Source: a virus | Lineage: Duplodnaviria; Heunggongvirae; Uroviricota; Caudoviricetes | IMG/VR virus record: IMGVR_UViG_2802429221_000010 | Direction: 5' to 3' (one strand) | Length of the DNA stretch: 17,400 nt | Shown here: positions 2,532 through 15,411 of the stretch, piece after piece | How the letters are laid out: every line of letters begins with the position of its first letter | How positions within the stretch are numbered: position 1 is the first letter of the stretch | Position numbers and translations under genes: made by a program | The notes under the pieces: model-generated | Databases searched by the model: none | Seen by the model: the letters and a program-made list of their open reading frames with translations, nothing else | What the model was told of the DNA's origin: nothing

Positions 2532-3332
2532 ATGAAACTGCGAAAAACGCCCGTACAGGGGCAGGGCTTCGTTCGGCCTGAAAACCAGAATCTGCAAAAT
2601 TTCGGCGAAATTATCCCGATTATTTCCGGCGTTATTGGCGGGAGTGAAACCACTATTGTTAGCGCCAGAGCGTTACATAAGGCGTTAGGTGTAGGGCGCG
2701 TTTTCCGTTCGTGGATCAAGGGGCGCATTGAAGAATACGGGTTCACGGAAGGCGTGGATTATGAGGTTGTTGAATATTTGAGCCGACCCGATCCGGTGAG
2801 CGCAAAATCTCGCCAGCAAACCGCTCTTGAGTACATCATCACAGTGAACATGGCAAAAGAACTGGCGATGGTCGAACGCACCGAACAGGGCCGCGCCGTT
2901 CGTCAGTACTTCATCAAATGCGAGGAGGAGCTACACAAGGTAGCGCCAGTGCGTTCCGCAGCGTTACGCCGGGAACTGAAAGCCCGTATCACAGTTGCCA
3001 GCTACTTTAAGCCAATGTGTGCCGCGTTGGAGGCGTACCGGGCTGAACTGGGTAAAAACACGTTCCAGCACCACTACACCACGGAAGCCAATATGCTGGC
3101 GCGTATCGTGCTGGGTGGCATGACTGCAAAACAGTGGGCGCAGGCGAACGGCATCACAGGCGAACCACGCGACCACATGAGCACGTTGCAGCTTGAGCAC
3201 CTTTCTTACCTTGAGCAGAGCAATATCACGCTGATTGAGTTAGGCCTGGACTACCACCAGCGGAAAGCTGAATTAATTCGTCTTTCGCAGCGTTGGTTAG
3301 CCCGTCGCATGGAGGAAAACAGCCATGTGTAA
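2532..3332 (+). CDS. Phage antirepressor-like protein (AntA/AntB-type N-terminal domain)
   Basis: 266-aa ORF with AGGAG Shine-Dalgarno. Segment SARALHKALGVGRVFRSWIKGRIEEYGFTEGVDYEV resembles the AntA-family core. Domain assignment is from memory, not a search. Confidence 0.65.
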   Translation: MKLRKTPVQGQGFVRPENQNLQNFGEIIPIISGVIGGSETTIVSARALHKALGVGRVFRSWIKGRIEEYGFTEGVDYEVVEYLSRPDPVSAKSRQQTALEYIITVNMAKELAMVERTEQGRAVRQYFIKCEEELHKVAPVRSAALRRELKARITVASYFKPMCAALEAYRAELGKNTFQHHYTTEANMLARIVLGGMTAKQWAQANGITGEPRDHMSTLQLEHLSYLEQSNITLIELGLDYHQRKAELIRLSQRWLARRMEENSHV

Positions 3333-4863
3333 CGCTCTGACCGTTACAAAAAGAGAAAGCGCCCCGTTGCCGGAGCGCCTTTGTGAACGAATAGCCTACT
3401 GCGCCATATTGCTTACTGTCTACGAGGCAGATTATAGCGTTGTGGTCGCACAGAGTGAAGGCGCTGATCACCGTTACTACAGCACGCCAGAAATGCAGAA
3501 TATTTTGCTGCAAAATGTCGTTGGTCACGCTGTCCGGAAAGCAAAAAATTTTGCTGGTAGCGCGACTGATGCGATTTTGTCAGGTCGCCAGGTGATGATC
3601 AATCTGATGTCTAATTTCGTTCTGGATAAAACAAAGGCGACCGCAGAGGGCCACCAGTGGGAAAGCTACACACTTGAACACATCGCCAACAATGCCAGAT
3701 TTGCGGCTGGTGGGCAATGTGATCAGTGTGCTGGCTTGCTGGTGGGCTATTCCTGCTCTTTAACATTGCCATGCCGCGATGTTTTCCAGGTATGCGACCC
3801 CATTTTTGTGCGCCTGTACTCTTTAAGGAATTTCTCAAGGATAAACGCACAGGGCGCGAATCTGTCTGACTCATATTCGTACGCTATCTTTCTGCGCTGT
3901 CTTTTCCGTGCCGGTGATGGTGTATTGGTTGATTCTTTGTTGGTCATTCTGTGTACCTGTAAAGCAATGCGCCGGAGTTCCTCACACCACGGCGATGATA
4001 GTTATTATTCTGATTCTTTGGCCTTGCGGCGCTGGAGTTCTTCACGTGCGACGGTGACGAGTTGCCCGATCTCCTCGACAGCTTTGACTCCGATTTTTTC
4101 CACCTGCGCCAGTGCATTGAGCGAAGAAACCAGGGGATTTTCTCCGCTTCCTTCTGCCTGGCGGCGGGCGATCTCACCACGCATGGCGGTTACTATGAAT
4201 CCGGCGTTGCTTTCGCCGTCCAGTTTTACGGATTCCATGCCTTCAAAAGCATCATGTGGGATACGAATTGAAATCTGTTTTGATTTGTCGTTGATAGTGT
4301 TTTTTGCCATGTGCATTCTCCTAAACAAAAGATGTGATTCAGTATACACAAAAAAGAATCACAAAAAATACTTGACCTGTGATTCAGTTAAATTTAATTT
4401 AAATCACACCTCAGTAAGAGGATGTAAACGACAACGCCCCGAACTGTTTGCGGCAGTAGCGGGGCGTCTAACCAAACCGTTAAATGAGGTAACGATTATG
4501 GCTGGGGCACAGCATACCCAAACTCACCCTAAATTTATATACACCTTCCTGGCGGTGCACCGTGATTGCATGGCTGACGGTAAAAACACTGTTCATGTAG
4601 CCGCCGATACGCTGGTTGATGCCTGCGAGATGCTCAATGACATGGGCTATATCTCGGCAACATGGAAAGGGCGCGAAGAAAACACGTTGTTTATTCAGAA
4701 ATGCGAAAACAATTTTATCTGGCGTTTTATCGCCCTGAGTACGGCACAACCGCGCGTGATTCACATCGAGGCCACCAGCGAACAGGAAGCACGCCAGCAA
4801 TCTCCTGATGGCTGCGTGATGGTATTCGCTGCCCATATTCGCCAGGAGGTGGAGCATGTGTAA
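3325..4863 (+). CDS. ORF of uncertain extent: translationally coupled start, plausible coding N-terminus, remainder probably not a real 512-aa protein
   Basis: ATG at 3325 overlaps the upstream stop (ccATGTGTAAcg). First roughly 120-160 codons have protein-like composition. From about 3800 the translation turns Ser/Cys/Arg-rich and low-complexity, runs antisense through the RHH-like gene (4005-4310) and its operator region, and ends in frame with the better-supported start at 4498. Confidence 0.25.
   Translation: MCNALTVTKRESAPLPERLCERIAYCAILLTVYEADYSVVVAQSEGADHRYYSTPEMQNILLQNVVGHAVRKAKNFAGSATDAILSGRQVMINLMSNFVLDKTKATAEGHQWESYTLEHIANNARFAAGGQCDQCAGLLVGYSCSLTLPCRDVFQVCDPIFVRLYSLRNFSRINAQGANLSDSYSYAIFLRCLFRAGDGVLVDSLLVILCTCKAMRRSSSHHGDDSYYSDSLALRRWSSSRATVTSCPISSTALTPIFSTCASALSEETRGFSPLPSAWRRAISPRMAVTMNPALLSPSSFTDSMPSKASCGIRIEICFDLSLIVFFAMCILLNKRCDSVYTKKNHKKYLTCDSVKFNLNHTSVRGCKRQRPELFAAVAGRLTKPLNEVTIMAGAQHTQTHPKFIYTFLAVHRDCMADGKNTVHVAADTLVDACEMLNDMGYISATWKGREENTLFIQKCENNFIWRFIALSTAQPRVIHIEATSEQEARQQSPDGCVMVFAAHIRQEVEHV
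4005..4310 (-). CDS. Ribbon-helix-helix-like small DNA-binding protein; candidate element repressor
   Basis: Translation MAKNTINDKSKQISIRIPHDAFEGMESVKLDGESNAGFIVTAMRGEI has a beta-strand then helix pattern typical of RHH (CopG/Arc) folds. AGGAGA sits 6 nt before the ATG at 4310 on the minus strand. Divergent from the + strand gene run, with palindromic repeats between. Confidence 0.6.
   Translation of the reverse strand: MAKNTINDKSKQISIRIPHDAFEGMESVKLDGESNAGFIVTAMRGEIARRQAEGSGENPLVSSLNALAQVEKIGVKAVEEIGQLVTVAREELQRRKAKESE
4330..4412. promoter_or_regulatory. Divergent promoter/operator region with TGTGATTC inverted repeats
   Basis: TGTGATTC (4333-4340) and GAATCACA (4355-4362) form one palindrome; TGTGATTCAG (4377-4386) and AATCACA (4402-4408) form a second. 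A TTGACC -35-like hexamer (4371-4376) lies between them, with a possible -10 TAATTT about 17 bp downstream. Confidence 0.45.
4498..4863 (+). CDS. Hypothetical protein, 121 aa
   Basis: ATG at 4498 preceded by GAGGT 7 nt upstream, located downstream of the promoter/operator region. Globular-looking composition. Stop overlaps the next gene's start (gcATGTGTAAtg). Confidence 0.5.
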   Translation: MAGAQHTQTHPKFIYTFLAVHRDCMADGKNTVHVAADTLVDACEMLNDMGYISATWKGREENTLFIQKCENNFIWRFIALSTAQPRVIHIEATSEQEARQQSPDGCVMVFAAHIRQEVEHV

Positions 4864-5861: not shown

Positions 5862-6152
5862 ATGAAAAAGAAAAATTCTGGCTTTACTGCCAGCGGTCTC
5901 TCTCGGCCTGAAATCAGACACGGAGATATTTACCGCGACACCATACGTGGGGGACGAGCGGTTATTTGTCATGTTACGCCAGAAAATATCACCTACCGCC
6001 GTGACGCTTATGAATATGACTGCATAATGCCGTGCCGTCAGTTTGAGCGTGATTTTATTCTGGTGGAGAACAAACAACAGGAAGCGACGAGACGTGCAGC
6101 CATGAATATTAAAAAAATCCGGGCAATGTTGGTTGCGGGAGGTAAGAAGTGA
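5862..6152 (+). CDS. Hypothetical protein, 96 aa
   Basis: Stop-bounded ORF immediately upstream of the primase; its TGA overlaps the primase GTG start (GTGA at 6149-6152). Confidence 0.5.
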   Translation: MKKKNSGFTASGLSRPEIRHGDIYRDTIRGGRAVICHVTPENITYRRDAYEYDCIMPCRQFERDFILVENKQQEATRRAAMNIKKIRAMLVAGGKK

Positions 6153-7954
6153 AAAACGCACCGAGTCTAAAATATCAGCCGAAGGATAAATTCACTGAGG
6201 TAATCATTTTTGCCGGGACGGATGCTTACGCCCATGCTCAACACTGGATTGAAAGTGAAGGACGAAAACACGGCGATAACGTGCCTCCTGTTTACCTGGG
6301 GCCAAAGCAACTGGCAGACCTGGCGAATATCCGCATTATTGACGAGAAACGCCGTTTTGCGCGTGTCTATATCGCGGGGGAGATAGAGCCAATCCAGATC
6401 AATACTATCGCTGAAAAGCTGGCGCTGGCTGGCGTACAGGACGCGAAATTATACAAAGGTATCACCGACCGGGAGCCGGAAAACTGGCGCGACTACCTGC
6501 AACGGATCCGCGAACAGGCAGAGAGTGGGGAAGTTTCAGCGATGAAATTAGCCACAAAAAATATTGACCTACCCAGGCCAGCACTAAATCAGATGGGAGC
6601 CAGCCAGAGAGGGGAAGTGTTACTTGAATATTATGGAAGAGCACTGGCTATAAATGATGATTCTGATGTAGTTCACCATTACAACGGAATTGTCTGGGTG
6701 CCTGTATCTGATAAGGAACTCCAGCGGTCTATGGCGAAGATTTTTATTGATGCTGGAATCAGTTATTCGCAAAACGCCATTAAATTTGCCGTAGACACAA
6801 TGAAATTGAGCCTGCCTGTTATGGGCGGGGCAGACAGGAATCTTATTGGATTCAGTAACGGGGTATTTGATACCCGGACGGGAAATTTTCGGGAGCATAA
6901 CAAAAATGACTGGTTGTTAAATGCCAGTGAATTACCGTTCAGCCCACCAGCAGAGGGGGAAACGCTGGCAACACATGCGCCGAATTTCTGGAAGTGGCTG
7001 CGTCGTTCGGTGGCAGATAATGATCGTAAAGCTGATCGCGTACTGGCGGCATTATTCATGGTACTGGCGAACCGGTACGACTGGCAGTTATTCCTTGAGG
7101 TAACAGGCCCAGGCGGAAGCGGTAAAAGTGTGATGGCTGAGATTTGTACCATGCTGGCGGGTAAGGCCAACACAGTATCGGCAAGCATGAAGGCTCTGGA
7201 AGACGCAAGGGAACGCGCGTTAGTAGTTGGCTTTTCGCTGATTATCATGCCGGATATGACTCGCTACGCTGGCGATGGTGCAGGAATTAAGGCAATTACT
7301 GGCGGCGACAAGGTGGCAATTGATCCGAAACATAAAGCCCCCTACTCCACACGTATTCCGGCAGTAGTGCTTGCGGTAAACAATAACGCCATGTCATTCA
7401 GTGACCGAAGCGGGGGGATCTCGCGTCGTAGGGTGATATTTAATTTCTCTGAGGTCGTACCGGAGAACGAACGCGATCCCATGCTGGCGGAAAAGATAGA
7501 AGGCGAACTGGCGGTAGTGATTCGCCATTTGCTAACACGATTTACCGACCAGGACGAAGCTAAAAGACTACTTTATGAGCAGCAAAAATCAGAAGAAGCG
7601 CTGTTGATAAAGCGCGAAGGTGATTCACTGGTGGACTTTTGCGGCTATCTGATGTCGTTGGTTAAATGTGAAGGAATGATGGTGGGCAATGCGGAAATAG
7701 TGCCATTTAGCCCGAGGCGATACCTGTATCATGCTTATTTAGCCTATATGTCAGCGCATGGCCTGGGAAAACCAGTATCACTGACACGCTTTGGTACTGA
7801 TATGCCAGGAGCTATGGCGGAATACGGAAAGGAGTATAAGCGGGCTAAATGCACTAAAGGCCCGGATAAAGGGCGAGTGATAACAAATGTTCTGTTAGAT
7901 GATGATGCTGATGGCTGGTTGCCAGCAGCTACAGGGATTAACGACAGAACATAA
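6149..7954 (+). CDS. Primase-helicase-type replication protein (P4 alpha / D5-like NTPase)
   Basis: 601-aa ORF with Walker A GPGGSGKS at 7106-7129 and a downstream hydrophobic strand ending in acidic residues (LIIMPDM). The N-terminal half is long enough for a primase-like domain. Immediately followed by an iteron array. Confidence 0.88.
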   Translation: MKNAPSLKYQPKDKFTEVIIFAGTDAYAHAQHWIESEGRKHGDNVPPVYLGPKQLADLANIRIIDEKRRFARVYIAGEIEPIQINTIAEKLALAGVQDAKLYKGITDREPENWRDYLQRIREQAESGEVSAMKLATKNIDLPRPALNQMGASQRGEVLLEYYGRALAINDDSDVVHHYNGIVWVPVSDKELQRSMAKIFIDAGISYSQNAIKFAVDTMKLSLPVMGGADRNLIGFSNGVFDTRTGNFREHNKNDWLLNASELPFSPPAEGETLATHAPNFWKWLRRSVADNDRKADRVLAALFMVLANRYDWQLFLEVTGPGGSGKSVMAEICTMLAGKANTVSASMKALEDARERALVVGFSLIIMPDMTRYAGDGAGIKAITGGDKVAIDPKHKAPYSTRIPAVVLAVNNNAMSFSDRSGGISRRRVIFNFSEVVPENERDPMLAEKIEGELAVVIRHLLTRFTDQDEAKRLLYEQQKSEEALLIKREGDSLVDFCGYLMSLVKCEGMMVGNAEIVPFSPRRYLYHAYLAYMSAHGLGKPVSLTRFGTDMPGAMAEYGKEYKRAKCTKGPDKGRVITNVLLDDDADGWLPAATGINDRT

Positions 7955-8319: not shown

Positions 8320-8337
8320 GTAACGATGGGGCAAAGC

Positions 8338-8868
8338 ATGACTAAGCTGACCATTAACAGAAAACCAAAAGGTATTTACGGCACGCCGCAGAAAACGACG
8401 CAGGCGGCGCAGCAGCAGGATAAAACCACATCGGCGCATAAAGTGATGCCCGGTAACCAGAAAGCGCAGCAGAAGCCCACAGGGGCAACACCGTGGCGGC
8501 ATATGACCAAACGGCAGCGAAAAAACCGCAGACGCGTTAACCGCCTCACTGAGTTGTGGCCTGAATTATTCAGCCGGGAAGCACCGAAGCCGCTTAAGGT
8601 GGGGATATTCGACGACCTGATGCAGGATCTCGCCGTCAGGGGGCTGGCATTCGGGCCAGGGGCATTGCGTGCGACGCTGGCATCTTATGCGCAGTGTCCG
8701 CGCTATTACCGCGCCTTAATGGCTGGTGGGGTACGCTACGACCTGAAATGCCAGCCGTGCGGCGAGGTGACACCACAGGAACAACAGGACGCAGAAACGC
8801 GGCTGGTTGCGCTGAATGAGAAACGCAAACGTCAGCGTCGGGCAGCAAAGGAGAAAACAGGCGCATGA
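8338..8868 (+). CDS. ProQ/FinO-domain RNA-binding protein
   Basis: Segment PLKVGIFDDLMQDLAVRGL...LRATLASYAQCPRYYRALMAGGVRYDLKCQPCGEVTPQEQ aligns with E. coli ProQ N-terminal domain (PLKIGIFQDLVDRVAGEM...[39 protein letters not shown]). N-terminal half is basic and low-complexity. Start could be 8326 or 8338. Confidence 0.8.
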   Translation: MTKLTINRKPKGIYGTPQKTTQAAQQQDKTTSAHKVMPGNQKAQQKPTGATPWRHMTKRQRKNRRRVNRLTELWPELFSREAPKPLKVGIFDDLMQDLAVRGLAFGPGALRATLASYAQCPRYYRALMAGGVRYDLKCQPCGEVTPQEQQDAETRLVALNEKRKRQRRAAKEKTGA

Positions 8869-9152
8869 TTCACGACAGCAAAGCGGAAGCTCTGGAAGCG
8901 CGTGGTCTGTACCGGAGAGCGGCGGCGCGGTGGGCTGAGGTCATCATGCTGGCGAATGATGACAAGGCACGGGAACAGGCGGCAAAACGTCGCGCGGAAT
9001 GTATCCACAAGGCAGCACGCCCACCAGCAAGGCAGGATAATTTCGGGGAGATGCGCAAAACCATCAGCCGGGCACATGCCGGGATGGGATTACATCAGCC
9101 CAATGGTGAGGCATTCAGGAAATACCAAAAAAAGAACAATTGTAGTCAGTAA
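8865..9152 (+). CDS. PerC-family transcriptional regulator-like protein
   Basis: 95-aa ORF with ATGA overlap onto the upstream stop. N-terminal SKAEALEARGLYRRAAARWAEVI resembles the PerC/Pch signature as I recall it; not checked by search. Confidence 0.6.
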   Translation: MIHDSKAEALEARGLYRRAAARWAEVIMLANDDKAREQAAKRRAECIHKAARPPARQDNFGEMRKTISRAHAGMGLHQPNGEAFRKYQKKNNCSQ

Positions 9153-9286
9153 CAGAGGATGGGATTCTCTTGGTTTTTTGTTGATGCTTTCTGAGGAAAT
9201 CTACTACGTTGCTGAGCAGATGAATATTCAATTGCATCTGGGTTCCTGATAAGATTAATCTGAATATTTTCATTTGGAATAGGGAT

Positions 9287-10429
9287 ATGAATAAAACTTT
9301 AATTGCAACATTAGTCGGTATAGTAATGTTAACCGGATGTGGGCCAGAAGAGTTAACTCCAGAACAGAAACAGGAAGTAGCGGCTCTTAAAGCTGAACTG
9401 TCGCAAACGGAAGGTGAAATATCAGCAGCTAAGGAAGTTGACCAGCAGTTTTCTGGTGGGTTGATAAAAAATCTGACAACAGCAAGACTGGAAATATTAG
9501 GAACTAATAAAGCGCTTTTGGAACAGCGTATTAATGCTATTGAATCAGGCGCCAAAATTGATGTTGTTGTATCTGGAGTAAAACCTGATCCTGAGCTTGC
9601 GGCTTCAATTAAAACTGAAATTGACAGCTTAGATGCAAAAATCAACGAAGCCAAAGCTGATGCTCGTCAGTATAGTGGTGGTCTGATAAAGGTACTAAAA
9701 TTATCTACTGTTGCCACTGAAGAGCAGACTATGGCAATGTTGCAGCAAAAGTACCTCACAGCCAAGTATGGCCTCGCTGAAGTTAAGCTGGCATCAGTAC
9801 AAGATAATGACGCAAAAAACAGTACTGAAACGGAAGTAACAGCCAAAAATTCCCAAGATCAACTTCCTTTACTCCCGCCAGCGGATGGTCCGTTTGGCTT
9901 AGAAGCCGGTCTTACACAGAAAAACATCGAAGATATGATCGGTGCTAAGCTCAAGCCACTACCAGACAGTGTGAATCTGTATACTTCTGATAAATTACCG
10001 AAGCAAAACGCAGATTTTGAAATGTATGGTTTGTTGATCTCCCCGAAAGCTGGTTTATGTCAAATACGGGCTTTAGGAAAAAATATTGATACTGATAGCT
10101 ATGGATTGGCTCTTAAATCCAAGTTTGAAGAATTGAGTAATTCTTTAAGTTCTCTGTATGGAAAGGCTGATACTACAGACTTTTTGCTGGCTGGTTCAAT
10201 TTGGAAAGATCCTCAGGACTGGATGAGGGGGCTAAACAAAAAAGAACGCTTCTTATCTGCCACATGGAAAGGAACAAAAGAAATACCATTAAAAAACAAT
10301 ATTGATACTATCTCTATTGAGGCCAGAGCGAACAATTCCACTCAGGGATATGTCTATCTGCAGTACTCATTTACAAATGACGAAATTTGTCAGGCAGAAA
10401 TTGAAGGGGCGAAAAAAAGTTCCCTTTAA
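9287..10429 (+). CDS. Lipoprotein, 380 aa, with internally repeated coiled-coil-like N-terminal region; function unknown
   Basis: Signal peptide with lipobox MNKTLIATLVGIVMLTGC. Two copies of the motif (Q/R)Q(F/Y)SGGLIK(N/V)L within helical, charged segments. AGGGA Shine-Dalgarno. Lower GC than the replication module. Confidence 0.8.
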   Translation: MNKTLIATLVGIVMLTGCGPEELTPEQKQEVAALKAELSQTEGEISAAKEVDQQFSGGLIKNLTTARLEILGTNKALLEQRINAIESGAKIDVVVSGVKPDPELAASIKTEIDSLDAKINEAKADARQYSGGLIKVLKLSTVATEEQTMAMLQQKYLTAKYGLAEVKLASVQDNDAKNSTETEVTAKNSQDQLPLLPPADGPFGLEAGLTQKNIEDMIGAKLKPLPDSVNLYTSDKLPKQNADFEMYGLLISPKAGLCQIRALGKNIDTDSYGLALKSKFEELSNSLSSLYGKADTTDFLLAGSIWKDPQDWMRGLNKKERFLSATWKGTKEIPLKNNIDTISIEARANNSTQGYVYLQYSFTNDEICQAEIEGAKKSSL

Positions 10430-10442
10430 ACAATCCGTGCAA

Positions 10443-10468
10443 AGCCCCTTAGTAAGGGGCTTTTATAT
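10443..10468 (+). terminator. Rho-independent terminator
   Basis: GC stem GCCCCTT / AAGGGGC with a 3-nt loop, followed by TTTTATATAT, 14 nt after the lipoprotein stop. Confidence 0.6.
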
Positions 10469-10494
10469 ATTAATGTCCAACGGGGGGGGATTAG

Positions 10495-10818
10495 ATGAAA
10501 GATAATCTAGAAAAACTAATTGAAAATACTTTAAAAGATATTCTATTAGCTAATGCTGCTCTAACATTCATTTTTGCAATACCAATGGCTATTATCAGTA
10601 GGCATGGGATGGGCATCACAATCTGGTTTATAACTGTGCTCATTGCACCTGCTCTGTGTGCAGTAGGTGCATGGCTTGTATCTCGAACATTCGGCCATGC
10701 TGAGGAGTTTTTTCATCGTCGGTGGGCTAAGCGAATTTATGTTTTTTATACTCTTGCGGCTGCCGAGTTTTTGCTTGTGTACTCAATCGCGCAAATAATG
10801 AAAAATCTGATGAAATAA
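10495..10818 (+). CDS. Small inner-membrane protein, 107 aa, two or three predicted transmembrane helices
   Basis: GGGGGGGA Shine-Dalgarno. Hydrophobic stretches ALTFIFAIPMAIIS, ITIWFITVLIAPALCAVGAWLV and IYVFYTLAAAEFLLVYSIA. Confidence 0.7.
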   Translation: MKDNLEKLIENTLKDILLANAALTFIFAIPMAIISRHGMGITIWFITVLIAPALCAVGAWLVSRTFGHAEEFFHRRWAKRIYVFYTLAAAEFLLVYSIAQIMKNLMK

Positions 10819-11096
10819 TTAACAAGTTATTATCATGGGGTTTGTGGCTGTTAACCTGCAGTGAGGCGACAATCGTGTATTTATAAAAACTTCCCCTTTT
10901 CACTCCCCGCTGTTTCTTCTGCTATTGCCTTTATGTTTGCATGCACCAACATCTGCCATACTTTTGCAGAAAAATCAGAGCATTCAGTGCCGAAGGTTGG
11001 TTTATTGATGCTTTTCGTTTCATTTATTGCAATTGTCTCTGGTATCATTTCAATTTGTGCAATAATTGCAATTATTGTCATTCAGAAGGGATCATC

Positions 11097-11264
11097 ATGA
11101 AAAATCACGGAGTAAAGCCAGTTTTACTTTCCCGGAGGCAGATCGAAGCCCTGCAACGCATCCAGGACGAAGAGCGTCAGAAATCTGTGCTTGGTGTGGC
11201 ACCGTCGATTCATGTTATCGCTCGGCAACTGATGGATAAGGCACTTAAAGAGGTGAGACTGTGA
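11097..11264 (+). CDS. Small putative DNA-binding protein, 55 aa, RHH-like
   Basis: AAGGGA 6 nt before the ATG at 11097. Sequence VKPVLLSRRQIEALQRIQDEERQ fits a strand-helix RHH pattern. The longer track ORF starting at 10941 has an implausible Cys/Phe-rich N-terminus. Confidence 0.45.
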   Translation: MKNHGVKPVLLSRRQIEALQRIQDEERQKSVLGVAPSIHVIARQLMDKALKEVRL

Positions 11265-11331
11265 AATTAAATATCAGAGTGGATAAACCCAGCTATGGCA
11301 GAAAAAAGAGAACAGCGAGGCATTCAGGGCG

Positions 11332-11532
11332 TTGCTGGTGGAAAATCTTCAGCACCGGTTCAGTGGAGAGTTGCCTGATGCTCTAGGGAAGAAACTGGAA
11401 TCCCTGACGGTGGAAATTGGCGATTATGGCTTTGTTGATGTTGAAAGCACGACTGCCAACACAGAAATCGTAAAACAGGTCGTCAATGATGTAATGAAAA
11501 CCACGCTTAGCCAGCCATCCTGGCGCAACTGA
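11332..11532 (+). CDS. Small hypothetical protein, about 64-66 aa, non-ATG start
   Basis: Open frame with only TTG (11332) or GTG (11338) starts. Acidic, globular-looking translation. Followed by hairpin AGGGGC...GCCCCT at about 11541-11566. Confidence 0.35.
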   Translation: MLVENLQHRFSGELPDALGKKLESLTVEIGDYGFVDVESTTANTEIVKQVVNDVMKTTLSQPSWRN

Positions 11533-11632
11533 ATCAGTAAGGGGCGGTTATTGCCCCTTTCCTCCATACCCACAACGCATTCCCTTTCCGCATGAAATTA
11601 TTTTTTTATCGTATATGCATGAGGTGAGCTAC

Positions 11633-12160
11633 ATGTTGATGAGTAAAGCCGAATACGCCAAATACAAAGGCGTAAGCCGCCAGACAGTTTACGACTGGAT
11701 CGAGAAAGGCGAAGTGATCATGTCTGGCAAAAAAATTGATGTGGATGCGACAGATCAGCGGAACAGCCCACCAGCACAGGGGAAAGACACCGTTTCTGAA
11801 ATGTGGCCAGAGAGAACGCTGGAAATGACGTGGGGCGAGTTCTGGAAAGCAGTTAAGGCCAGAGACGGTAAAATCCCTGCACCAGTAACGGACGATGACA
11901 TACGGCAGCGTGTGCTGAATGCAGCCGGGGAATTAGGCTGGGAAGTGCACTTTCTTGATGATGGTGCTATCTGCCTTGAGGATGATGAAGGACAGCATTA
12001 CTTTGAACAATACAATTTGCGGGGTAATGCCTGGCTGGCAATTCATATGCTGCGTTGTGAACTATGCTATGTTGCCAGCGATTGTCCCGATGAACAGGAC
12101 ACATGGAGTGAGGCAGGACTAAACGCCCTGGCTGAATGGGAAAAATCAGGCCATCAATGA
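11633..12160 (+). CDS. HTH-domain protein, 175 aa; excisionase/terminase-small-subunit-like N-terminus
   Basis: GAGGTGAG Shine-Dalgarno before the ATG at 11633. N-terminus SKAEYAKYKGVSRQTVYDWIEKGEV is an HTH of the type seen in lambda Nu1 and excisionase-like proteins. Immediately followed by a direct-repeat array. Confidence 0.7.
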   Translation: MLMSKAEYAKYKGVSRQTVYDWIEKGEVIMSGKKIDVDATDQRNSPPAQGKDTVSEMWPERTLEMTWGEFWKAVKARDGKIPAPVTDDDIRQRVLNAAGELGWEVHFLDDGAICLEDDEGQHYFEQYNLRGNAWLAIHMLRCELCYVASDCPDEQDTWSEAGLNALAEWEKSGHQ

Positions 12161-13424: not shown

Positions 13425-14480
13425 GTGTCTACACAGAAAATTGAAGAAAAATTTACATCTGCACAAGATGCATTAGTAATTCAGCAATCCGATTTATCAT
13501 TAAAGTCACTTTCTGATATGGTTGAATTAGATGCAGTAGATATAAGTCCAAAATATCAGAGAAGGGAGCGTTGGACTGCGGAGAAAGAGTCAAGTTTGAT
13601 TGAATCATTCTTGCTAAACATCCCGGTCCCGCCAATTTATCTCGCAGAGGATAGATATGGAATCTACTCAGTAATAGATGGAAAGCAAAGAATAACGGCT
13701 ATAAATAAATTTTTAACAAATAAAATGAAACTCGTGGAATTAGAAAAATTTCCAGAGTTAGAAGGGTTCTATTTTAAAGACTTACCCCAACCTCTTTCTA
13801 ATGCATTAAGCATCCGACCATATTTAAGAGTGGTCACATTATTGCGCCAATCTGACCCAGACTTAAAGCATGAAGTCTTTCTGAGATTAAATAAAGCAGG
13901 AGTATCTTTAAATTCTCAAGAGATAAGAAATGTTGCTTTTAGAGGGGATTTAAATGATGCTCTTATTGAACTGTCGGATACTCCATTTTTAAAAGAAATG
14001 CTTAAATCAAATAAAAATACTAAAATTTACCAAGAAATGGGAGATGTTCAGTTTGTGTTGAGGTTTTTTACTGTGTTTGATTTGTGGGAAAATTTTCCAG
14101 GTAATATGGATAAAGCTATGGATCTATTTATGGCGAAAAAATCTCGCAGCTCAATTCAAGATGTTAACGAAATGAAGCGGTTATTTTTGCGCTCAATTCA
14201 TTTTTGCGAGACGGTGTGGGGTAATGATGCATACAAAAGAATTGATAACAGTCAACGCGTAATTCAAGGTATGTATGATGTCCAGATGGTTTGCCCTGCC
14301 TTTTTACAACAAAATGAATATGATCATGCCATGGAAAATGCTGCTGATGTAAGACGACTCTTAGTTGATGAACTTTCAAATAATGCGGATTTTCTTGAAT
14401 CAGTGACTCAGTTCACGTCTAACCCAAGAAATATTGCATATAGAATATCACACTTCTGTGACCTTCTGAGAAGAATTTAA
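13425..14480 (+). CDS. DUF262-domain protein (ParB/Srx-like NTP-binding domain as in GmrSD-type enzymes N-termini)
   Basis: GTG start with AAGGG 7 nt upstream. N-terminal motif ISPKYQRRERW (13548-13580) fits the DUF262 P-x-(F/Y)-Q-R...W box; DGKQRITA (13677-13700) fits the DGQQR box. AT-rich. Stop TAA 14478-14480 lies 1 nt before the next ATG. Confidence 0.85.
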   Translation: MSTQKIEEKFTSAQDALVIQQSDLSLKSLSDMVELDAVDISPKYQRRERWTAEKESSLIESFLLNIPVPPIYLAEDRYGIYSVIDGKQRITAINKFLTNKMKLVELEKFPELEGFYFKDLPQPLSNALSIRPYLRVVTLLRQSDPDLKHEVFLRLNKAGVSLNSQEIRNVAFRGDLNDALIELSDTPFLKEMLKSNKNTKIYQEMGDVQFVLRFFTVFDLWENFPGNMDKAMDLFMAKKSRSSIQDVNEMKRLFLRSIHFCETVWGNDAYKRIDNSQRVIQGMYDVQMVCPAFLQQNEYDHAMENAADVRRLLVDELSNNADFLESVTQFTSNPRNIAYRISHFCDLLRRI

Positions 14481-14481
14481 T

Positions 14482-15411
14482 ATGCCTATTCCAGCGAAGG
14501 ACAATTTGCTAAAAAGAATCCTGTCTGTAGATAATGCAACTCAACTACCAGCACTTATCGATAAAGATGTTATGCAGGAACAACACAATATCACAGCTAA
14601 TCTTCTGAGAAAAGGCTTAGGTATAGTAGCATTTAATATTCTGGAAGATTTTATAAAATCCAGAACTATAGAAATGTTTGATTTTATATCTAATGCACGT
14701 GTGAGATTCGAGCAGTTACCCGATTCTTTTAGAATTGCAGCAACAAATGGTGCATTAAGAGGATTAGTATATCAGGCTGGATTAGAAAAGAAAAATAATG
14801 GAGATTGGTTGGCACTAATACATTCTGAGGCCAAAAGTATTTTTTCAACGTCGCAATTTCCTTATACATTATCTCGAGTATCACTTCTTTCAGATGGTTC
14901 TAATGTTGGACATGATGATATACCAGAAGTAATGAAGTGTCTTGATATAACTGGTGGGTGGAAGACATTACAAAAAATATCGAACGATATTGGTGGTGGT
15001 ACATTAGATCTGAATGCTGCTTATAAAAATATGTTTTTCGATAGAAATAGATGTGCTCATGAAGCAGGTTTTAATTATCCATATACCTCTCTCGATAATT
15101 CTTTAAATGACATTGTTACTATTGCTTCTGCATTTGACATAGCGTTAACTACTCGTTGCAGGTATATAGAAAAACAACCTAATTTACCGCTTTCAGCTCA
15201 TAAAGAAAAAGATCCGTTTTCATATCGGTTTTTAATCGCTGATGGAGATGTTTTTCGAGAGAAAAAATCATTAGAACCTGGTGCGAAAACAATAAAAAAA
15301 TGGAGTAATATCTCTGATGCACAATCTAATTTAATTCCTAAGCTAAGACTCCGCGATGAGTTTTTGATTTATATAGGAAAACAGAGAAGGCTTAGTGATT
15401 GGTATTTGTGA
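14482..15411 (+). CDS. Hypothetical protein, 309 aa, with a HEPN-like R-x4-H motif; partner of the DUF262 gene
   Basis: Tightly coupled to the DUF262 gene (TAAtATG). Contains FDRNRCAHEAG (R-x4-H at 15043-15060), compatible with a HEPN RNase active site. No DUF1524/HNH-like (D/E)H-x-x-P motif seen. AT-rich. Confidence 0.75.
   Translation: MPIPAKDNLLKRILSVDNATQLPALIDKDVMQEQHNITANLLRKGLGIVAFNILEDFIKSRTIEMFDFISNARVRFEQLPDSFRIAATNGALRGLVYQAGLEKKNNGDWLALIHSEAKSIFSTSQFPYTLSRVSLLSDGSNVGHDDIPEVMKCLDITGGWKTLQKISNDIGGGTLDLNAAYKNMFFDRNRCAHEAGFNYPYTSLDNSLNDIVTIASAFDIALTTRCRYIEKQPNLPLSAHKEKDPFSYRFLIADGDVFREKKSLEPGAKTIKKWSNISDAQSNLIPKLRLRDEFLIYIGKQRRLSDWYL

Follow-up and report, generated by a model that had tools for sequence, protein, structure and literature searches.

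What is a gene for a 380-amino-acid (aa) lipoprotein, followed by a gene for a 107-aa membrane protein (TM107), doing between the perC gene and a 55-aa gene of a mobile element of Escherichia coli? This question is raised by positions 9,287 to 11,264 of IMG/VR record IMGVR_UViG_2802429221_000010, a DNA of 17,400 nucleotides (nt) that is referred to below as the window. The original prediction, made from the letters of this DNA, took the carrier for a phage and the region for a module consisting of the lipoprotein, the small membrane protein and a third, very hydrophobic short open reading frame (ORF), with superinfection exclusion or envelope cargo as possible roles. The present analysis indicates that positions 9243–10819 are very probably a mobile "moron" cassette of foreign composition, self-contained and lodged in a satellite slot between perC and the 55-aa gene. 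From genomic position and neighbouring genes, it is tentatively proposed that the lipoprotein, expressed from the resident element, excludes superinfecting siphophages in the periplasm after adsorption; the tentative grade applies to this statement as a whole, the exclusion function included, while the cargo/moron anatomy by itself is held with high confidence.

The cassette and its boundaries

The window is a phage-inducible chromosomal island (PICI)-like phage satellite of E. coli and not, as was first assumed, a phage. According to the literature, PICIs are recognized by an integrase at the end, an alpA-type regulator, a primase, the lack of capsid and tail genes, a size of about 10–15 kilobases (kb) and a specific attachment site (PMC6092414). 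The window has an end integrase, an alpA-type regulator, a primase/replication module and an attachment site, and no structural (capsid or tail) genes were found within it. In the closest complete genome, the island adjoins tRNA-Thr, downstream of proA. The features of the region in question are as follows (bp, base pairs; GC, guanine-cytosine content).

9142..9190, plus strand: left junction just 3′ of perC, including the left-hand member of the imperfect direct repeat on either side of the insertion
9167..11016, plus strand: low-GC insertion of 1,850 bp (lipoprotein gene, TM107 gene and a spacer of ~200 bp)
9243..10819, plus strand: two-gene cassette (lipoprotein and TM107), 78–80% nt identity with non-PICI islands
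9247..9260, plus strand: motif TGATAAGATTAATC, 40 nt 5′ of the lipoprotein ATG, resembling an extended −10 promoter (TG-n-TAAGAT)
9287..10429, plus strand: lipoprotein coding sequence, 380 aa
10441..10470, plus strand: intrinsic terminator, i.e., a hairpin at 10441–10463 with a 10-bp stem (AAAGCCCCTT/AAGGGGCTTT) and then a T run
10482..10489, plus strand: homopolymer tract of eight G (G8) within the ribosome-binding region of TM107
10495..10818, plus strand: TM107, 107 aa, three predicted transmembrane helices
10819..11096, no strand assigned: non-coding spacer
11097..11264, plus strand: 55-aa backbone gene, the right-hand edge of the accessory slot; it lies outside the cassette and is kept in islands with and without it

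A blastn comparison of the window with the cassette-less ABU 83972 island (L009) revealed that backbone homology stops at 9166, and that the 1,850 bp of 9167–11016 are replaced there by 17 bp, with the 55-aa gene following perC after about 110 bp. In total, three E. coli islands (L009, L010 and L011) have this cassette-less arrangement, in which perC stands directly before the 55-aa gene. A 14-nt repeat, TTTGTTGATGCTTT, is found at 9177–9190 and again at 11001–11014. The GC content is 39.6% for the insertion and 39.4% for the two-gene cassette, as compared with 48.9% for the primase gene, 56.8% for proQ–perC and 48.3% for the downstream backbone, which bears out the earlier observation that GC is lower here than in the replication module. 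Three of the marks by which morons are recognized in the sense of Juhala and Hendrix (PMC3594210) are found at this locus: presence or absence between collinear relatives (the segment is missing from L009, L010 and L011), a deviating nucleotide composition (39.4% vs 48.3–56.8% around it) and a terminator of its own (10441–10470). A further mark, a promoter of its own that is active from the repressed element, may be represented by the motif at 9247–9260.

The segment 9243–10819, which extends from 44 nt 5′ of the lipoprotein ATG to the stop codon of TM107, is common to islands of Enterobacter bugandensis and Klebsiella pneumoniae with 78–80% identity. On a plasmid of Enterobacter cancerogenus and in islands of Enterobacter hormaechei with P4-type primase genes, homology is confined to the lipoprotein gene and at most ~60 bp upstream, and no small membrane ORF is present 3′ of the lipoprotein gene on that plasmid or in those islands. 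The cargo/moron anatomy is supported by the existence of related islands without the segment, by its different GC content and by the movement of the lipoprotein gene alone between satellites, plasmids and tail operons; envelope cargo, one of the two roles suggested at the outset, is therefore well founded, the cassette being mobile, compositionally foreign and self-contained within a satellite backbone.

The lipoprotein gene appears to be transcribed as a unit of its own, flanked by a promoter-like motif on the 5′ side and a terminator on the 3′ side: the plasmid and E. hormaechei copies share little beyond the gene itself, and both the motif and the terminator are conserved. The conserved upstream motif, TGnTAGGATTAATC, lies 40 nt before the ATG, and a TG-n-TAGGATTAATC motif occurs at the same distance of ~40 nt in many genera and contexts. 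The sequence TGATAAGATTAATC overlaps the palindrome AGATTAATCT, and a paired change retains the palindrome (GGATTAATCC in most loci, AGATTAATCT here). A generic consensus promoter scan did not detect the motif at 9247–9260; it is read here as a putative extended −10 promoter with a possible promoter or operator role. A hairpin and T run follow the lipoprotein stop codon nearly everywhere in the relatives, with stem sequences that differ by lineage and show compensatory changes, so that the terminator noticed originally is conserved in other genera as well.

The DNA described here is carried by 132 of 5,426 complete E. coli genomes, in every case on the chromosome and inside an island, and the carriers include O104:H4 outbreak strains, avian pathogenic E. 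coli (APEC) and clinical isolates. Such carriers, together with the PerC and ProQ/FinO-type regulators of the same island and the fact that tail-operon morons can encode virulence factors (PMC3594210), would suit a virulence or fitness lipoprotein of lysogenic conversion (serum resistance, adhesion), comparable with lambda Bor and Lom, plasmid TraT, or Iss. This explanation is considered improbable, since the family reaches soil and water bacteria and insect-associated Xenorhabdus with no tie to vertebrate hosts, the protein is predicted to face the periplasm, and it has no similarity to Bor, Iss, TraT or Lom.

The lipoprotein, TM107 and the spacer

The lipoprotein can be divided into the following parts.

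Residues 1–18 (nt 9287–9340): signal peptide and lipobox
Residues ~21–165 (nt 9347–9781): duplicated helical-hairpin stalk
nt 9443–9475 and 9665–9697: SGGLIK turns
Residues 166–196: variable low-confidence linker
Residues 197–380 (nt 9875–10426): globular alpha/beta domain with conserved C258 and C368

The N-terminus, MNKTLIATLVGIVMLTG-C18, has the makeup expected of a substrate of Lgt, LspA and Lnt: a signal peptide with a positive n-region and a hydrophobic core, and the lipobox L15-T16-G17-C18 (consensus [LVI][ASTVI][GAS]C), in agreement with the LTGC lipobox reported for this 380-aa protein before. Neither G17 nor C18 varies, and all 25 homologues in the alignment retain the lipobox, as do copies in other genera. 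According to the Lol rule, lipoproteins are sorted to the outer membrane if the residue at position +2 after the lipid-modified cysteine is not aspartate. In this protein, +2 is the invariant G19 and +3 is P20; given the glycine at +2, the lipoprotein is predicted to be sorted to the outer membrane, where it would be anchored in the inner leaflet and face the periplasm. Both copies of the (Q/R)Q(F/Y)SGGLIK(N/V)L motif described earlier were recovered, as QQFSGGLIKNL (residues 53–63) and RQYSGGLIKVL (residues 127–137). They lie inside an internal duplication of ~50 residues (local alignment score, 76), and in the AlphaFold2 model each is situated at the turn of a helical hairpin (helices 25–54/59–87 and 102–126/133–161).

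Folded by itself, the C-terminal domain (C-domain) yielded an alpha/beta structure with a mean local confidence (pLDDT) of 93.3 and a global score (pTM) of 0.87. By its modelled fold, the C-domain appears to belong to the Mog1p/PsbP-like group of periplasmic binding modules, an assignment that carries no function with it. Identity to the Mog1p/PsbP-like periplasmic proteins PA1624 (DUF4892) and DcrB (DUF1795) is 6–14%, with about half of the domain aligned, and there is no Pfam match to DUF4892 or DUF1795; DcrB is a chromosomal inner-membrane lipoprotein, and no function was found for PA1624 in the literature. The fold is also common to phage lipoproteins in the BFVD database (E-value, 7e-7; TM-score, 0.61). 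Among 78 distant relatives, the conserved positions are mainly glycine, proline and aromatic residues, and no catalytic residue set is conserved in the globular domain; a binding role therefore seems more likely than catalysis. The two cysteines are conserved in the aligned Enterobacterales and in close stand-alone relatives, which fits a periplasmic disulfide.

Searches with Pfam, NCBIfam, PHROG and PADLOC models gave no match to the lipoprotein, sequence and profile searches of the PDB gave nothing useful, and no characterization of this protein was found in the literature on PICI lipoproteins. The statement that no homologue is recognized thus holds for named families but not overall, as an indexed search returned 320 matches and 2,452 representative clusters were found at E ≤ 1e-3. 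By sequence, the lipoprotein is a member of a large family without a name (~2,450 representative clusters). The matches fall into two modules, the stalk (~1–170) and the C-domain (~195–380). The stalk is also fused to the VasI domain of type VI secretion systems (T6SS), to PG_binding_1 and to C-terminal domains that Pfam does not recognize, whereas the C-domain alone constitutes ~200-aa secreted proteins or lipoproteins in many phyla. When 78 diverse relatives of the C-domain and 20 relatives with several domains were scanned with Pfam, just one VasI fusion and one PG_binding_1 fusion came to light.

The ratio of nonsynonymous to synonymous substitutions (dN/dS) is 0.05–0.08 for the lipoprotein and 0.13–0.22 for TM107, pointing to strong purifying selection on both, the values having been computed against copies with near-saturated synonymous sites. 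Judged by these ratios (0.05–0.22), the two ORFs are real genes.

The earlier description of TM107 as a 107-aa multi-pass membrane protein agrees with its three hydrophobic segments (~16–36, 42–63 and 81–101), and the loop at 64–80 is positively charged. By the positive-inside rule, TM107 is a putative inner-membrane protein with its N-terminus in the cytoplasm and its C-terminus in the periplasm. Its family comprises 17 clusters, all of them in Enterobacterales, and in the eight contexts that were looked up (8/8) it is encoded directly 3′ of a 380-aa lipoprotein gene. On sequence evidence, TM107 is a facultative partner: its occurrence requires the lipoprotein, while the lipoprotein usually occurs without it. 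The module proposed originally is hence a conserved adjacent pair in one sub-lineage, and neither its third ORF nor a constant presence of TM107 was confirmed. TM107 starts 25 nt past the lipoprotein terminator; therefore, its expression needs read-through or an unmapped promoter.

The G tract before TM107 reads as G5 (interrupted), G6, G7, G8 or G9 in 22 of 24 related loci, near-identical islands differ in it, and two Edwardsiella-type loci have none. This variation could represent real slippage that tunes TM107 translation, or it could be a homopolymer assembly error.

In K. pneumoniae, E. bugandensis and metagenome contigs (L116, 4795–7137; L115, 4798–7739; L124, 3834–6769), directly 3′ of the lipoprotein and TM107 genes stand a gene whose 266-aa product is membrane-anchored at its C-terminus and, after it, a gene for a 155–194-aa protein; in K. 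pneumoniae, the defence gene PDC-S20 stands beside the module. The lipoprotein, TM107 and the 266-aa protein, with or without the 155–194-aa protein, may form a three- or four-gene membrane module. The cassette of the window might be thought of as a truncated form of a larger membrane-spanning defence system, in which a breach of the envelope would be sensed by the lipoprotein and answered by the inner-membrane partners with an abortive response. The genes of the trio or quartet stand next to each other in the same orientation in the above loci, PDC-S20 lies alongside, and the occurrence of TM107 is strictly tied to the lipoprotein. Nevertheless, such a derivation is very improbable: the 266-aa gene has left no remnant in the window, none of the PICI copies of E. 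coli and C. freundii contains it, the majority of family members (and every one in a prophage tail operon) are single genes, and the extra proteins match no known defence model.

Assignment of the lipoprotein as a spanin was rejected. An Rz1-type spanin, a small proline-rich outer-membrane lipoprotein, disagrees with the length of 380 aa, with the globular domain and with the location of the genes in satellite slots and tail operons and not in lysis cassettes, and TM107 does not qualify as an inner-membrane spanin, having three transmembrane helices and no periplasmic coiled coil.

The spacer at 10819–11096 holds the very hydrophobic ORF of the original prediction on the plus strand (79 aa from GTG 10861 or 30 aa from ATG 11008, both ending at 11100) and a 66-aa ORF called on the minus strand (10881–11081) by the annotation pipeline PGAP. 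The C. freundii island shares both cassette and backbone with the window, yet ATA replaces the ATG of the hydrophobic ORF in it, and a 1-nt insertion then closes the frame early. In the three cassette-less E. coli islands, the DNA is recognizably conserved, but it has no start codon and contains 1-nt indels. The short ORF is thus open only in the lineage of the window, with neither start nor frame conserved, and was rejected as a gene; the 66-aa ORF, broken in C. freundii, was rejected as well. Backbone DNA begins at 11017, and direct and inverted ATTGCAAT-type repeats lie upstream of the 55-aa gene; when translated, ATTGCAAT-like motifs yield isoleucine and alanine runs. The block 11017–11096 is conserved whether or not an island has the cassette, and it is probably the promoter/operator of the downstream backbone operon. 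No RNA family was detected in the region with Rfam.

Where the family occurs and what it may do

IMG/VR and a set of genomes with one per species were scanned with an alignment of closer relatives rather than distant representatives, and the ~100 loci obtained were sorted by local tblastn against marker proteins. Two mobile contexts dominate among them. In satellites, the lipoprotein gene has a primase gene or perC on one side and the 55-aa gene on the other. The second context consists of lambdoid siphophage prophages (of Xenorhabdus, Proteus, Pantoea, Erwinia and Pseudocitrobacter), where it is found in the tail operon adjoining the tape-measure gene, either between the major tail/chaperone genes and the tape-measure gene or between the latter and gene M. 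A deposited phage, Klebsiella phage 2b LV-2017 (KY271395; L121, 4917–5591), has an unannotated lipoprotein ORF directly 5′ of its tape-measure gene, with the lipobox LLTGC followed by APFGF and an hhalign probability of 96.9% (E-value, 1.5e-10) to the C-domain profile. A KilA-N gene and a 192-aa ORF near it are also moron-like.

Defence genes lie close to several members of the family in independent contexts: PD-Lambda-4 and a PD-T4-5/AbiD-like gene on a plasmid, PDC-S20 in K. pneumoniae and bSEFIR in C. freundii, while BREX (bacteriophage exclusion) genes adjoin a relative of the stalk module. On pDGEO01 of Deinococcus geothermalis, a 194-aa C-domain homologue (L014, 5944–6528) is encoded between cas6e and cas1e of a type I-E CRISPR-Cas operon. 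Neighbour clustering of 40 genomes revealed no partner that is conserved family-wide.

It is the moron anatomy, the repeated adjacency to tape-measure genes, the defence-rich neighbourhoods and the binding-type fold that, taken together, argue for exclusion of siphophages after adsorption. The resident element would express the lipoprotein, whose stalk and linker would suspend the binding domain in the periplasm, where it could bind a conserved component of the envelope or of the phage tail. Incoming siphophage genomes, delivered through the tape-measure/tail-tip channel, would then fail at envelope crossing. TM107 would be made by terminator read-through or from an unmapped promoter and would accompany the lipoprotein in one sub-lineage; where present, it may supply an inner-membrane contact.

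A bolder version, which is speculative and rather unlikely in its full extent, makes the globular domain a large periplasmic exclusion family of satellites, temperate siphophages and plasmids that would stop genome delivery by binding the tape-measure/tail-tip complex or its conserved docking partner in the envelope. One copy would have been recruited into a type I-E operon, and the enterobacterial stalk with one to three inner-membrane partners would constitute an envelope-spanning barrier.

Several findings weigh against exclusion as the function. No sequence or fold match to a characterized exclusion protein or defence system was obtained with Pfam, NCBIfam, PHROGs or PADLOC, and no similarity was found to Cor, Llp, Ltp, TraT, SieA/B, Imm/Sp, YebO/gp15 or the PADLOC systems; the superinfection exclusion considered in the original prediction is strengthened by the tape-measure adjacency and the defence neighbours and, with no known exclusion homologue, is still an interpretation. 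Deposited phage genomes gave no tblastn match with the window protein and two prophage versions as queries, and only one marginal match among 50,697 genomes was obtained with a distant stand-alone relative; that match is Klebsiella phage 2b LV-2017, which profile comparison bore out. The terminator between the lipoprotein and TM107 genes is strong, and their co-expression is not assured. Around the distant stand-alone homologues, no gene recurs as a neighbour, and ordinary metabolic genes surround many of them. Finally, homologues occur in free-living Deinococcus, Acidobacteria and Gemmatimonadetes and purifying selection is very strong, a combination that fits a conserved target of housekeeping type as well as it fits an arms-race protein.

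Two other explanations were considered. The protein might be an orphan periplasmic immunity or inhibitor protein, carried as protective cargo, that neutralizes a periplasmically acting toxin or hydrolase of the cell wall; T6SS effectors, colicin-type bacteriocins, lysozymes and phage tail lysins come into question. One relative (P0191) in which the stalk is joined to a T6SS VasI domain, a colicin-like tRNase gene that lies with its immunity gene at a distance of 3 kb on the plasmid of E. cancerogenus, and the strong purifying selection, which fits a conserved target, would agree with this. However, no recurrent T6SS, rhs, cdi or bacteriocin neighbour appeared in the ~100 loci, the gene is not encoded next to a cognate effector or within a T6SS, rhs or vgrG locus, and phage tail operons are not the usual gathering place of orphan immunity genes; the explanation is judged unlikely.

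The other explanation is a host-type protein of envelope architecture, such as a tether or spacer between the outer membrane and peptidoglycan or an adaptor of a membrane complex, that hitch-hikes on mobile elements and takes no part in their conflicts. It would account for the stalk fused to a PG_binding_1 domain in Paracoccus, for the widespread stand-alone homologues that are often found amid housekeeping genes, for the very low dN/dS, and for the nearest folds, PA1624 and DcrB, being membrane-associated periplasmic Mog1/PsbP-like proteins (PMC7716261). Against it stand the patchy and always island-bound distribution in E. coli (132/5,426), the foreign GC content and the repeated moves among satellites, prophages and plasmids, and a housekeeping role would leave the repeated insertion at the side of tape-measure genes unexplained. 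For these reasons, an architectural role seems quite unlikely, and exclusion after adsorption is tentatively retained as the preferred function.

Envelope-protein morons are a known means by which prophages protect their hosts, and few families of them have been characterized. The present family is of note for its size, for its absence from Pfam, NCBIfam, PHROGs and PADLOC, for its presence on three kinds of mobile elements, and for its reproducible position at the side of tape-measure genes. Should genome entry indeed be blocked by this family, a widespread mechanism of post-adsorption exclusion would be added, failures of phage host range in clinical Enterobacterales, including O104:H4 and Klebsiella, would become easier to explain, and there would be a way into the periplasmic stage of siphophage DNA injection, which is poorly understood. 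Otherwise, the lipoprotein would be a well-defined conserved envelope protein that is spread by mobile elements.

The remaining island genes and known systems

Outside the cassette, the window contains the following genes.

1–1215: int (integrase)
2208–2453: AlpA-like regulator gene
Among the island genes: AntA/B protein gene
6149–7954: D5/P4-type primase gene
8326–8868: ProQ/FinO gene
8865–9152: PerC gene, stop codon at 9150–9152
3′ part of the window, past the 55-aa gene: 90-aa gene, then a helix-turn-helix (HTH) gene
Far end of the window: paired DUF262 (NsnA-like) and HEPN-like genes

The gene pair at 13425–15411 has a low GC content (34%). Its DUF262 protein, encoded by the first gene, matches PADLOC NsnA (E-value, 7e-65) and PD-T4-2_A, and the 309-aa product of the second gene is annotated in related islands as an MAE_28990-type HEPN-like nuclease; the pair is probably anti-phage cargo at the 3′ end of the island. 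A 302-aa ORF (1246–2154; GC, 31.6%) between int and the alpA-like gene gave no match in PADLOC, the sole library searched, and may be a further accessory insertion. The 512-aa open frame at 3325–4863, where PGAP places short Icd-like and YlcI/YnfO genes in related genomes, is probably spurious.

In the 90-aa backbone gene (11261–11532), one nt that is present in ABU 83972, E189 and C. freundii is missing after 11288, so that two ORFs of 41 and 66 aa result; either the gene is a pseudogene by frameshift or the sequence contains an error. The next gene (11615–12160) encodes a protein of 181 aa that begins with a MerR/excisionase-type HTH and weakly matches a terminase-small-subunit PHROG (E-value, 6e-7), and it occupies the place where E. 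coli PICIs encode Rpp packaging-redirection proteins. The name RppA was not applied to it, as there was no PDB sequence match. The identification of the ABU 83972 island (yicC/dinD) with EcCICFT073 was likewise dropped, because the numbering in PMC6739421 (c1503 = rppA) suggests a different, related island.

Among characterized systems, the pair of lipoprotein and TM107 can be compared with Imm and Sp of phage T4, a small multi-pass inner-membrane protein and a membrane-anchored periplasmic protein which jointly halt genome entry. Sp inhibits the tail lysozyme, and the imm and sp genes are neither adjacent nor an autonomous cassette. The likeness is one of functional analogy only, with no homology, and the lipoprotein of the present family usually occurs alone.

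A parallel to the lipoprotein itself is Ltp, whose target is the tape-measure protein. Ltp of Streptococcus thermophilus phage TP-J34, a lipoprotein that prevents the injection of DNA, is encoded by a prophage and joins a lipid anchor and a spacer to helical domains that are repeated (PMC3952083). Cor (phi80, N15 and T1) and Llp (T5) are phage outer-membrane lipoproteins that protect the carrier from superinfection (PMC9586334; PMC3594210). However, they are only ~60–80 aa long, plug the FhuA receptor and are encoded beside receptor-binding protein genes, whereas the present lipoprotein is five times larger, shows no similarity to them and is encoded beside tape-measure genes.

The gene arrangement can be compared with that of phage HK97, in which gene 15, the first moron to be described, stands beside the tape-measure gene and encodes gp15, a proven exclusion protein that blocks genome injection (Cumby et al. 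2012, reviewed in PMC3594210). The two products differ in kind, gp15 being a small YebO-like inner-membrane protein and the present one a predicted outer-membrane lipoprotein of 380 aa with a stalk and a globular domain, and no sequence relationship (no Pfam match) was found between them. What they have in common is an independent unit in a siphophage tail operon beside the tape-measure gene, an envelope product, horizontal movement, and bacterial homologues outside prophages.

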